From sequence record NZ_CP024444.1: a stretch of 64,000 nt of DNA. One strand, given 5' to 3'. The position numbers and the translations under genes are program-made. Each line of letters opens with the position of its first letter. The stretch's first letter is position 1. This DNA comes from a plasmid. Below are positions 43,443 through 44,754 of this stretch, in pieces. Under the pieces are notes generated by a model. It was given only the letters and a program-made list of their open reading frames with translations, had not been told where the DNA came from and made no database searches.

Positions 43443-43613
43443 TTATACTACCACAAACTAGCAGTAATCTCTCATGACAAAACAGCGTAAGTAGTACAGC
43501 AAAGAATTTAAACTAGAAATGATCAAACCCATAGAAGAACAAAATCAGCGTGTTGTTGATATTGCTAAGCAAATCTGTTTCAATGGTGCGTTGTACGCAC
43601 CCTACGCACTGCA
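43443..43613 (+). repeat. 171-bp direct repeat, copy A: the left end and OrfA start (MTKQRKQYSKEFKLEMV...) of a second, distinct IS3-family element. It abuts the aph start codon.
   Basis: It is about 97% identical to 44584-44754. Confidence 0.75.
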
Positions 43614-43621
43614 GGTGATGG

Positions 43622-44437
43622 ATGGAGGATGATCCGCGCGAACGGCCCTGCGCTGCGCTGCCGTTGCCAAGCGAACTCGCCGGGCCACTGGCAGGCTACC
43701 GCTGGAGCCGCGATCTGGTTGGCGAATCCGGGGCGCGGGTGTTCCGGCTGAGCGGCAAACCGGGGGCGGAGGATCTCTACCTCAAGCGTGGCAGCGGCCC
43801 GGTCGCGGAGGATATCCTCGCCGAAGCGCAACGCCTGCGCTGGCTATCGGGCCGGATCGAGGTGCCGGCGGTGCGGTCTTACCATGAGGAGGATGGTGAA
43901 GTCTGGCTGGTCACCTCCGCCATACCGGGCCGGACCGCCTATCTGCTGCTCGAGGCGGATACTGCGGGGCGTGAGACAATTGTCGATGCGCTGGCGCACT
44001 TTCTGCGGCGCTGGCACGCGCTCGACTCGCTGACTTGTCCGTTTTCCAGTGACGCAGCCGGGCGACTGGCGCTGGCGCAAGCGAGGGTTGAAGCGGGCCT
44101 GGTCGACGAAGACGATTTCGATCCCGAACGCGCGGGGTGGACGGCCGCGCAAGTGCTGGACGCTGCGATGGAATCGTTGCCACGCGTACCCGACCGCGTG
44201 GTGACGCACGGCGATTTCTCGCTCGATAACGTGCTGTTCGTCGGTGGCGCGGTTGCGGGATGTATCGACACGGGGCGGGTTGGCCTCGCCGACCCATATC
44301 AGGATCTGGCGATCATGTGGAACTGCCTCGGAGAATTCGGCGCGGCGCTGCAGGAACGCTTTCTGAACCAGTATGGCGTTGTCGAGCCTGACTGGGACCG
44401 GCTGCGGTTTCACCTGCTGCTCGACGAATTGTTCTGA
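43622..44437 (+). CDS. aph(3'): Aminoglycoside 3'-O-phosphotransferase, an APH(3') that is type I-like, conferring kanamycin/neomycin resistance.
   Basis: YRWSRDLVGESGARVFRLSGKP, VTHGDFSLDNVLF and RYQDLAIMWNCLGEF parallel APH(3')-Ia motifs. The segment is about 68% GC against a backbone of about 40%. Confidence 0.8.
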   Translation: MEDDPRERPCAALPLPSELAGPLAGYRWSRDLVGESGARVFRLSGKPGAEDLYLKRGSGPVAEDILAEAQRLRWLSGRIEVPAVRSYHEEDGEVWLVTSAIPGRTAYLLLEADTAGRETIVDALAHFLRRWHALDSLTCPFSSDAAGRLALAQARVEAGLVDEDDFDPERAGWTAAQVLDAAMESLPRVPDRVVTHGDFSLDNVLFVGGAVAGCIDTGRVGLADPYQDLAIMWNCLGEFGAALQERFLNQYGVVEPDWDRLRFHLLLDELF

Positions 44438-44583
44438 TCCGGATCAGAGCAAGCGTAGTTGCCCGCCTGCCTCTGGCGCGCTGAACCGCGAACAGTCCAG
44501 TACAGTAGGGTGCGCACAGCGCACCATTAATCTGGAGTGCGGGTGTCTATGTACCAGTACAATATTCCCAGACGCCCCATTAG

Positions 44584-44754
44584 AGGTTATACTACCACAA
44601 ACTAGGAGTAATCTCTCATGACAAAACAGCGTAAGCAGTACAGCAAAGAATTTAAACTAGAAATGGTCAAACCCATAGAAGAACAAAATCAGCGTGTTGT
44701 TGATATTGCTAAGCAAATCTGTTTCAATGGTGCGTTGTACGCACCCTACGCACT
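44584..44754 (+). repeat. 171-bp direct repeat, copy B, carrying the same IS3-like 5' end fragment as copy A.
   Basis: It is a direct repeat of 43443-43613. Confidence 0.75.

Follow-up and report, generated by a model that had tools for sequence, protein, structure and literature searches.

A putatively captured Erythrobacteraceae-type aph(3') gene between two copies of a REP-doublet element on a Moraxella osloensis plasmid

Our analysis of a plasmid sequence (64,000 nucleotides of record NZ_CP024444.1, the whole stretch studied and hereafter called the window) indicates that an aminoglycoside phosphotransferase gene, aph(3'), is a captured piece of foreign chromosome bracketed by two copies of a small element that we called E, and suggests that the aph+E unit recombines into resident E copies. 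We consider this the best overall explanation, with a probability of roughly 55%. Alignment of the junctions placed aph precisely between two E copies, abutting the right end of one and the left end of the other. A preliminary description had presented the gene as part of a small translocatable unit bracketed by IS3-like 5' ends; the observation itself was confirmed, and the interpretation as a whole was supported in part. A small movable unit is acceptable from the sequence, but its ends are REP hairpins, not IS3 ends.

The direct repeats that had been reported on both sides of aph were recovered at 43442-43612 and 44586-44756. They are 171 nt long, 98% identical and 1144 nt apart, differ at three positions (43462, 43492 and 43522) and have no third copy in the 64-kb window. 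The DNA between them (43613-44585) has a GC content of 64.4% and the aph segment 65.7%, as compared with 41.7% for the window, with a maximum of 69.5% in 200-nt windows. The high-GC insert in low-GC DNA is thus real, although the earlier figure of about 68% was slightly high, and the distance between the repeat and the ATG is 9 nt rather than 8. No Rfam family matched the region from 43300 to 44900. The repeat-aph junctions were found again at 99-100% identity in contigs L001, L002 and L003, which come from other, independent samples, and therefore an assembly artefact was ruled out.

The gene at the centre of this arrangement is as follows.

43622-44437, + strand: aph(3') gene, coding for a 271-residue protein identical to RefSeq WP_100271021.1

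The protein is already present in RefSeq without an allele name, under the title 'APH(3') family aminoglycoside O-phosphotransferase [Moraxella osloensis]'. It scored 282.9 bits with the NCBIfam APH(3') profile NF033068 (cut-off 205), matched the Pfam APH family PF01636 (E 2.9e-37) and aligned without gaps to APH(3')-Ia (PDB 4FEU; E 7e-90). A disrupted catalytic motif, named earlier as a finding that would count against a functional gene, was looked for in this alignment: the LYLK, HGDFSLDN and GCIDxGRVGxADxYQDLA (GCIDTGRVGLADPYQDLA) motifs are all kept, with the catalytic loop HGDxxxxN, the Mg-binding Asp (IDxG) and the ATP-binding Lys intact. The protein probably functions as a 3'-phosphotransferase of the kanamycin/neomycin type. 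With the narrower APH(3')-I profile NF033059, it scored 374.1 bits, just under the cut-off of 400. It resembles APH(3')-Ia (Tn903) and APH(3')-Ib (RP4) in length, in its gap-free alignment and in its catalytic and Mg-binding motifs, but it is only 52% identical to the former and 55-56% to the latter, its closest relatives being Erythrobacteraceae chromosomal genes. On these scores, it is nearest to type I, yet outside the curated APH(3')-I boundary. The earlier view of a foreign, intact, high-GC, APH(3')-I-like gene was therefore borne out; the allele, earlier suggested to be an uncommon high-GC variant, falls just outside the formal APH(3')-I type.

The foreign DNA is sharply delimited, and it includes the tail of a second gene.

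43612-44501, + strand: putatively captured Erythrobacteraceae chromosomal DNA, 890 nt; homology to the donor contexts ends here
44444-44500, - strand: end of a radical SAM gene (PA0069 family) that is convergent to aph in the donor, last 18 codons (LDCSRFSAPEAGGQLRLL) and stop

These 890 nt comprise a 10-nt 5' leader with the Shine-Dalgarno sequence AGGTGA, aph and a 64-nt 3' flank, and they are 96.9, 95.9 and 93.6% identical to native contexts in contigs L155, L154 and L140, respectively, the GC content of which is 65-67%. The gene order there is DUF1330-aph-radical SAM, and the proteins of the neighbouring genes cluster with those of Altererythrobacter sp. H2, Erythrobacter sp. and Sphingomonadaceae MAGs. 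Translations of the radical SAM tail from the window, L140 and L155 agree. These comparisons showed aph to be a fragment of an Erythrobacteraceae (Sphingomonadales) chromosome, from 10 nt 5' of the ATG to 64 nt 3' of the stop codon. Because only 10 nt upstream of the ATG are included, the fragment presumably lacks a promoter of its own. At the donor side of the junctions, the native sequence reads ...CCAGT at the 3' junction, and the donor relatives have GCAATG or GCACGG upstream of aph.

We also considered an integron gene cassette or a pdif module. No attC site with core sites was found at aph, and none would fit there because the 3' flank consists of the end of the adjacent donor gene. XerC/XerD dif-like sites are absent near aph; the window holds two matches with three mismatches, at ~60.8 and ~61.7 kb, a number not above chance expectation. 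Both candidates were rejected.

Comparison of the two repeats with related contigs defined the larger element to which they belong.

44501-44755, + strand: complete copy of E, ~255 nt: left REP, 21-nt spacer, IS3-like left end, right REP
44505-44528, + strand: left REP of the complete E (GTAGGGTGCGCACAGCGCACCATT), with a GTAG head and, after it, a GC stem of 6 bp
44550-44719, + strand: IS3-family left-end fragment in E, with IRL TGTACCAGTAC, TTCCCA/TATACT, ribosome-binding site AGGAG, orfA' ATG at 44618 and ~34 OrfA codons
44726-44749, + strand: right REP of the complete E, followed by a GCACTG tail and the end of E at 44755
43442-43611, + strand: upstream copy of E, first ~85 nt missing; IS3-like fragment 43442-~43575, then right REP hairpin
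43582-43605, + strand: right REP of the upstream E (AATGGTGCGTTGTACGCACCCTAC), GCACTG tail ending at 43611; 7-bp stem in the leader fold

The upstream copy corresponds to 44586-44755 at 98% identity, and it is present in full length in contig L002. E has a GC content of 43.6% (44499-44755) and runs from CACAGTAGGG to GCACTG. The GTAG-REP pattern GTAGGGTGCG-N5-CGCACC occurs at 44505 and, in inverted orientation, at 43582 and 44726; a GTAG tetranucleotide precedes a GC-rich palindrome, and the GTAG heads of the two REPs face outward. The terminal inverted repeats of E are 87% identical across 31 nt, and a single-stranded DNA fold joins its two ends in a long stem (z = -4.4). These features showed E to be an inverted GTAG-type REP doublet, REPIN/BIME-like in its architecture, the spacer of which includes a ~170-nt IS3-family left end. 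The latter aligns at 73-75% nucleotide identity to an IS3-like fragment of the M. osloensis plasmid pNP7-2 and ends at ~44719. Its orfA' matched Pfam HTH_Tnp_1 over residues 3-34 with 22.3 bits, under the cut-off of 24.1 because just 34 codons remain. In the upstream copy, orfA' starts with an ATG at 43474 and meets a TAG stop at 43492; a stop at codon 7 of this leader is found in most E copies, and therefore translational coupling to aph is not conserved.

The outer limit of the upstream copy is set by an insertion sequence.

42169-43441, + strand: ISPpy1-like IS of the IS3 family, orfA 42248-42538 and orfB 42640-43410; it cuts the upstream E copy

Two other ISPpy1-like copies, at 31263-32535 and 56017-57287, are 90-92% identical, and the end of the IS matches features of M. 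osloensis and Psychrobacter plasmids annotated as IS3 or ISPpy1 family. No target duplication was found around the copy at 42169-43441 (left flank AAA, right flank GTT) or around the other IS copies of this heavily rearranged region.

These boundaries bear on the initial model, in which a small translocatable unit has two copies of an IS3 5' end as its repeats and aph is driven by outward IS transcription. About 134 of the 171 repeated nucleotides are indeed IS3-like (a leader and 34 orfA codons), from an IS3-family element that does differ, as had been stated, from the three ISPpy1-like copies; the repeat contains a -10 hexamer, TATACT, and direct repeats would permit loop-out and re-integration. 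However, the last 37 nt of the repeat (codons 35-46), which had been counted as part of the IS3-like element, are REP rather than transposase sequence, and the 171-nt repeat is only what the ISPpy1-like insertion left of the ~255-nt E. The IS3-like terminus is incomplete in the upstream copy, the first 36 nt of IRL being absent together with the native -35. In complete E, IRL is internal, 49 nt from the left end, and orfB, IRR and the transposase are lacking. The element boundaries thus contradict this model, as does the identity of the E termini in at least five flank contexts, and we judge it unlikely.

E was found with other flanks in contigs L137, L138, L139 and L002, which amounts to at least three loci besides the one in the window, and no target-site duplication surrounds it at five flank combinations. 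These alignments showed E to be a dispersed element whose ends are precise and which lacks target duplications. AG(Y) directly precedes E at every locus seen. It could belong to E rather than to the target, in which case only the donor junction (chance ~1/32) favours a site preference.

On its right side, the downstream E copy adjoins a truncated gene.

44757-44969, - strand: rnfB-like Fe-S protein gene, a stub with the first 70 codons; its ORF continues into E and reaches 81 aa

The last 11 codons of this ORF (44969 to 44724) are supplied by the repeat. TIGR01944 (rnfB) matched the stub at profile positions 32-81 of 190, i.e. the N-terminal Fe-S part only; the Pfam FeS family PF04060 matched as well. 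The M. osloensis-like contigs L007, L008 and L009, which lack aph, match the window from 46543 down to 44497, diverge beyond that point and encode the same 81-aa stub. The truncation of an rnfB-like gene at the second repeat, described earlier, is therefore correct, but it was not caused by the arrival of the aph unit: the identical E/rnfB' junction in the relatives without aph showed that E occupied this site before aph arrived. When an uninterrupted rnfB-like gene was sought in close relatives, a search of limited sensitivity with 16 candidates, nothing but the 81-aa stub was recovered.

At a second locus, L138 and the aph-bearing L002 have the left flank in common, but L138 lacks aph. E-aph-E is thus found at at least two loci, each with an E-only counterpart, as would be expected if the aph+E unit enters resident E copies. 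No contig gave a complete E-aph-E together with its two original flanks, as L002 stops inside the second E copy and the left side of the window is replaced by the IS. The predicted full loci would read flankA-E-aph-E-AATAATATC... and EamA'-E-aph-E-rnfB'. The pattern of SNPs among E copies was uninformative as to the position of a crossover. In the plasmid collection, searches for near and distant DNA matches yielded no aph unit, only the ISPpy1-like end and the 73-75% identical IS3-like fragments. A similarity between L138 and the window at 49817-49955 appears, by eye on the aligned sequence, to be a shared IS-like fragment and not a linkage of the two loci.

We propose the following origin. 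E would have inserted just 3' of aph in donor-type DNA, after TCCAGT, and a ~1.14-kb aph+E circle would then have closed between the right end of E, GCACTG, and a look-alike hexamer 5' of aph, for which the donor relatives have GCAATG or GCACGG. This wrong-end capture is suggested by the match of the donor hexamer to the terminal GCACTG at five of six bases (calculated chance ~0.005). The unit would subsequently enter resident E copies by homologous recombination or tandem re-insertion, generating E-aph-E.

Several routes to the same structure can be weighed against these junctions. E could be a classical MITE, with its ~31-nt imperfect inverted repeats acted upon by a DDE transposase in trans; two independent insertions of E, one on either side of aph, would then have made a composite transposon that moved as a whole. 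Its terminal inverted repeats fit this idea, and resistance modules bounded by MITEs are known, such as integron mobilization units and the MITE-flanked class 1 integrons of Acinetobacter. Such MITEs have their origin in DDE transposons and generate target duplications. The present unit likewise has two direct copies of a non-autonomous element of a few hundred bp around a resistance determinant, in a Moraxellaceae-type host, but the ends of E are REP hairpins, duplications are absent at all five flank combinations, and the cargo is one ORF with almost no flank. Moreover, the upstream junction would require insertion after ...GCAATG, unlike the AG(Y) that precedes every other copy, the left flank of the upstream E in L002 is not donor DNA, and the E-only counterparts at both aph loci fit recombination into resident copies rather than composite transposition. 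A composite of two MITEs thus appears quite improbable.

An even less probable route, in our estimation, is microhomology-mediated illegitimate recombination of taken-up donor DNA with tandem or replicating E, a process that would need no element-specific enzyme. It would agree with the short similarities at the junctions (left, GCA-TG/C; right, CCAG..CA) and with the natural transformability of M. osloensis, for which Juni 1974 is cited in the literature. However, both junctions fall exactly at E termini seen elsewhere, which random joins would rarely do twice, and a pre-existing tandem E-E was not observed.

The REP motif of E (GTAG head and stem) occurs at at least 120 loci across many phyla, and 56 of 123 matches elsewhere are inverted doublets. 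In Psychrobacter and other bacteria, E-type REPs flank genes of RAYT (Y1/HUH) transposases: such a gene is flanked by them in L087, L156 and L157 and adjoins one in L043, L058, L062 and L134. The RAYT of L087, a Moraxellaceae protein, is 42-44% identical to E. coli RayT; L156 and L157 are NCBI contigs not close to M. osloensis. No RAYT homologue was found in the 64-kb window, nor in Moraxella by tblastn of the plasmid collection. The window also holds no other REP of this family (one additional REP adjoins E in L138), and therefore E could be inactive here and depend on homologous recombination alone for its spread. That the REPIN-like doublet, processed by a RAYT/Y1 HUH enzyme, captured the chromosomal aph through cleavage at a look-alike end and shuttles it between resident copies is a more speculative idea, possible in our view but doubtful.

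GTAG REPs, BIMEs and TnpA-REP have been described (PMC3733652, PMC8266576). Like REPINs or BIMEs and their RAYT enzymes (PMC3116915, PMC3733652, PMC8266576), E is an inverted REP pair with outward GTAG heads and arms that co-fold as single-stranded DNA, is dispersed without target duplications and has a REP sequence that, in Psychrobacter and other genomes, flanks RAYT genes in REPtron fashion. In contrast, its spacer is 197 nt long and contains an IS3-family fragment, whereas the spacers of the other doublets examined are of 4-94 nt, and E is rare in the window while REPINs are highly repeated. Our literature search on the REP sequence of E and on M. osloensis aph returned nothing relevant.

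The REP/RAYT system is usually regarded as a domesticated, vertically inherited genome feature, and we know of no report of REPINs bracketing or moving a resistance gene. The vehicle appears to be undescribed so far. If capture by RAYT were true, this would be the first REP/RAYT system to serve as a vehicle for the horizontal spread of antibiotic resistance, and if a RAYT-type enzyme processes E, REP mobility and cargo capture would become testable with a selectable marker, so far lacking. IS26-type translocatable units, and HUH elements (IS91, ISCR and IS1294) that capture adjacent DNA via a wrong end, offer further parallels: one repeat and an adjacent gene form a unit that enters an existing repeat copy, and a look-alike end is proposed here too. 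The aph+E unit differs in that it encodes no transposase, and its entry may be purely RecA-dependent.

Capture by E would also leave aph dependent on transcription from outside.

43421-43449, + strand: hybrid promoter-like site, -35 TAGACA (43421-43426), 17-nt spacer, -10 TATACT (43444-43449); a consensus match only

Transcription would begin at the orfA promoter of the IS3-like fragment in the upstream E, pass through the REP hairpin and continue into aph, which would be translated from its own retained Shine-Dalgarno sequence. No terminator-like site was found at the REP hairpin before aph; it has no T-tract and the leader fold is ordinary (z = 0.5), and a terminator role was rejected. In the predicted site, the -35 is part of the right end of the ISPpy1-like IS, and the -10 sits at the start of the truncated E. 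The repeat had been thought the likely source of the promoter, and this holds for the -10, the -35 in the window being contributed by the IS. The IS would have landed between the -35 and the -10 of the orfA promoter, so that TAGACA took the place of TTCCCA with an unchanged 17-nt spacing and the left 85 nt of E were lost together with the former left flank. In a consensus scan, the hybrid site matched at 10 of 12 positions and the intact TTCCCA-17-TATACT of E (44565-44593) was weaker, at 9 of 12. IS-created hybrid promoters combine an outward -35 in an IS end with a resident -10; the TAGACA and TATACT predicted here from the consensus conform to this scheme, except that the -10 belongs to another IS3-family fragment, inside a REP doublet. 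Such an IS-made promoter suggests selection for expression.

It is conversely conceivable that aph is a silent passenger, unexpressed or inactive in Moraxella, and that the arrangement arose neutrally from rearrangements driven by IS and REP sequences. Expression of a gene with 66% GC may be poor in a host with 42% GC, the codon mismatch is large as well, no native promoter was captured, the promoter sites are consensus matches, and the rearranged surroundings with IS copies devoid of target duplications would suit such an origin. Nevertheless, the ORF is intact and retains every catalytic motif in its gap-free alignment to a solved enzyme, the captured piece is tight around the ORF and its Shine-Dalgarno sequence, the E-aph-E unit is 99-100% conserved in several samples and at two loci, and the IS insertion improved the -35 at exact spacing; a silent passenger is therefore improbable.

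The capture proposed here is traceable, in that the Erythrobacteraceae donor lineage, the exact 890-nt piece, the recipient and the vehicle can all be read from the sequence. An environmental chromosomal aph(3') would have turned mobile in M. osloensis, a skin and environmental commensal, by means of an unusual vehicle, a REP doublet with a predicted IS-derived promoter cassette inside. The allele falls under the APH(3')-I cut-off and is labelled 'APH(3') family', and therefore resistome surveys based on named alleles may under-call it.

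The aph(3') gene lies between near-identical direct repeats, as the preliminary description had stated, and a third copy of the repeat is absent from the 64-kb window. The repeat-aph junctions are the same in contigs of three other samples, which rules out a misassembly of the aph arrangement. The relevant features are as follows.

43442-43612 and 44586-44756: direct repeats of 171 nt, 98% identical, 1144 nt apart
43622-44437, + strand: aph(3') ORF, 271 aa
44501/2 to 44755: element E, ~255 nt, from (C)ACAGTAGGG... to ...CCCTACGCACTG, as delimited by comparison of all copies
44550 to ~44719: IS3-family left end in the E spacer, with an IRL starting TGTACCAGTAC, TTCCCA-17-TATACT, AGGAG, ATG at 44618 and ~34 OrfA codons
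44969 to 44724, - strand: rnfB-like stub ORF, 81 aa, N-terminal Fe-S part of RnfB only
31263-32535, 42169-43441 and 56017-57287: ISPpy1-like IS3-family copies, 90-92% identical

In the metagenome contig L002, aph is preceded by a longer unit, and a second one begins 3' of it. This unit, E, was found with other flanks in three further contigs of the metagenome scan (L137, L138 and L139). The E copies are 98-100% identical to one another, and no target-site duplication was seen at any of the copies compared. The upstream E of the window lacks its first ~85 nt because the ISPpy1-like copy at 42169-43441, for which no target duplication was found, abuts it at 43441/43442; the former left flank of this E is no longer present in the window. 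L137 and L139 have the right flank of E in common (GCACTG/TATTTATTCACTATAAC...) and differ in their left flanks, further evidence for exchange of sequence beside the left end of E.

The repeats had been described as the 5' end of an IS3-like element. This holds for ~134 of the 171 nt, but the boundaries of the unit are REP hairpins. The IS3-like homology (73-75% identity to an IS3-like fragment of the M. osloensis plasmid pNP7-2) ends at the start of the right REP of E, and a translocatable unit consisting of a plain IS3 fragment is the less likely reading. The ends of E are inverted copies of GTAGGGTGCG-N5-CGCACCATT, and in single-stranded DNA they are predicted to fold together as a long stem (z = -4.4). 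Doublets of GTAG-type REPs, called BIMEs or REPINs, have a known anatomy (PMC3733652, PMC8266576), and judged by its sequence E has ends of this type. An exact scan for the REP pattern in one genome per species yielded at least 120 loci. Among the matches listed, the hosts include Desulfobacterota, Planctomycetota, cyanobacteria, Thiomargarita, Pseudomonas, Undibacterium and Psychrobacter, and an inverted partner follows 4-94 nt further on in 56 of 123; in contrast with these 4-94 nt, the spacer of E is 197 nt long.

In Psychrobacter urativorans (L087), a gene for a 184-aa Y1 transposase sits between two such REPs. Its product matches Pfam Y1_Tnp, shares 42-44% identity with E. coli RayT and has close homologues that NCBI calls REP-associated tyrosine transposase (RAYT). 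RAYT homologues also adjoin the REP in L043, L058, L062 and L134, and lie between REPs of the E family in L156 and L157. The window contains neither a RAYT gene nor any REP beyond those of E, and none turned up for M. osloensis, with a tblastn search of plasmids negative for Moraxella. L138 has a lone additional REP with the same CCCTACGCACTG tail (1024-1056), 29 nt right of E; thus, REPs of this family exist outside E in its host. The 19-nt-specified REP core (GTAGGGTGCG...CGCACCATT) is exact in genomes of very distant phyla (L017-L136), with a related RAYT clade. According to the literature, REPs are often species-specific, and such constancy across phyla is striking for them.

The product of aph had been called APH(3')-I-like. 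It scores above the NCBI APH(3') model (283 bits vs a cut-off of 205) and is nearest type I, with 55-56% identity to APH(3')-Ib and 52% to Ia, but at 374 bits it falls below the cut-off of 400 of the APH(3')-I model. The predicted enzyme is thus an APH(3') beyond the curated boundary of type I. A disrupted catalytic motif, the possibility raised in the preliminary description, was not found: in a gap-free alignment with the solved APH(3')-Ia structure 4FEU, the ATP-lysine, HGDFSLDN and IDxG...D motifs are all kept. The exact protein is already deposited without an allele name (WP_100271021.1, RefSeq, M. osloensis, 'APH(3') family').

The high GC content of the segment was borne out, at 65.7% for the aph segment and 64.4% for 43613-44585, vs 41.7% for the window, with 60-70% in 200-nt windows between the repeats. 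Relatives of the protein in its 90% cluster are found in chromosomal contexts of 65-67% GC. The donor-type order is CoA ligase, acetyltransferase, DUF1330, aph, convergent PA0069 radical SAM, MoCF and SLT, and the products of the neighbouring genes group with Altererythrobacter sp. H2, Erythrobacter sp. and Sphingomonadaceae MAGs. The donor-type loci L155, L154 and L140 are 96.9, 95.9 and 93.6% identical to the window in nucleotide sequence, respectively, and this identity is confined to 43606/12-44501. The 3' tail thus delimited encodes, on the minus strand, the final 18 codons and stop of the donor radical SAM gene. The captured 5' leader is 10 nt long, with an AGGTGA Shine-Dalgarno, and is probably too short to include a promoter. 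In Altererythrobacter sp. H2, the radical SAM and DUF1330 proteins are numbered consecutively (WRK94779-WRK94782), and aph therefore seems to be missing between them; it may be variably present even within the donor family.

An endonuclease/phosphatase-family protein encoded nearby and identical in sequence led to three relatives without aph (L007, L008 and L009). Their 99% identity to the window extends from 46543 down to 44497, beyond which they continue differently, with the end of an EamA-like gene, ubiE, ubiB and further genes. They have one complete E at the identical rnfB' junction, and the stub is therefore older than the arrival of aph. The truncation of the rnfB-like gene at the second repeat was thus correctly described insofar as the stub ends in the repeat, which supplies its final 11 codons, but it preceded aph. 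In L007/L008 (e.g. L008 2104-2210), the other side of E abuts the 3' end of the EamA-like transporter gene, as read by eye in the translated sequence. Fragments of two genes therefore meet at E, and this implies that a deletion or rearrangement took place there earlier.

The two junctions of the aph segment coincide with the usual termini of E. Random joining would rarely produce this, and microhomology joining following natural transformation is a less likely origin. At the downstream junction the native donor sequence reads ...TCCAGT/TCA, and E is preceded at other loci by CCCAG(C), GCTAG(C) (twice, in different contexts) and TGCAG(C). Either E favours insertion after AG(Y), or AGC is part of E, in which case the donor agrees with it by a coincidence of 1 in 32. 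At the upstream junction, CAGGTG follows GCAATG or GCACGG in the donor-type loci, and either hexamer matches the E terminus GCACTG at 5/6 bases (calculated chance ~0.005). Two independent MITE-type insertions around aph are also less likely, as there are no duplications and the target at the upstream junction is wrong.

We favour a three-step capture. E would have inserted 3' of aph; an aph+E circle would then have closed between the right end of E and the look-alike site. HUH enzymes, the class to which RAYTs belong, make wrong-end events of this type in IS91/ISCR elements. The 1.14-kb aph+E unit would finally have entered a resident E by homologous recombination. The left flank of L002 also occurs in L138 and the right flank of the window in L007-L009; both aph-bearing arrangements thus have E-only counterparts, which supports entry into a resident E. 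Against this account, no complete E-aph-E came to light together with its two flanks, and the window has no RAYT gene and no additional REP. Such a vehicle would work like MITE-bounded or IS26-like translocatable units but differs in its build, a REP doublet enclosing an IS-promoter fragment; we found no description of this combination in the literature. The case is of moderate interest at present, and a demonstration of REP/RAYT-type processing would clearly raise that interest.

Intact E carries the promoter-like TTCCCA-17-TATACT (9/12 in a consensus scan). The scan revealed no terminator-like site between it and aph, and no T-tract accompanies the REP hairpin of the leader. In the window, the ISPpy1-like IS lies precisely between the positions of these two hexamers; it provides TAGACA at the same 17-nt spacing, which raises the match to 10/12, a predicted classic hybrid promoter for aph. 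Transcription might also read through from this IS, whose orientation is the same. The orfA'-REP leader ORF of L002 has 52 codons and stops 8 nt into aph; in most copies, the upstream one of the window among them, codon 7 is TAG, and translational coupling is therefore not conserved.

Direct target duplications are absent from all three ISPpy1-like copies; this suggests that IS elements have rearranged the region repeatedly. Synteny with L007/L008 stops at 46543, and IS sequences lie beyond.

46555-46857, - strand: transposase fragment
47045-47386 (orfA) and 47362-48453 (orfB): another IS3-family element

The 2-kb block comprising E, rnfB' and the gene of the endonuclease/phosphatase family therefore forms an island with IS elements on either side. 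The flanks otherwise resemble plasmids through IS elements only, and the window thus looks more chromosomal or chromid-like than known-plasmid-like. Directly left of the ISPpy1-like copy at 42169-43441 are ORFs named by eye as imidazolonepropionase-like (40524-41756) and formiminoglutamase-like (39477-40508), functions of histidine utilisation.
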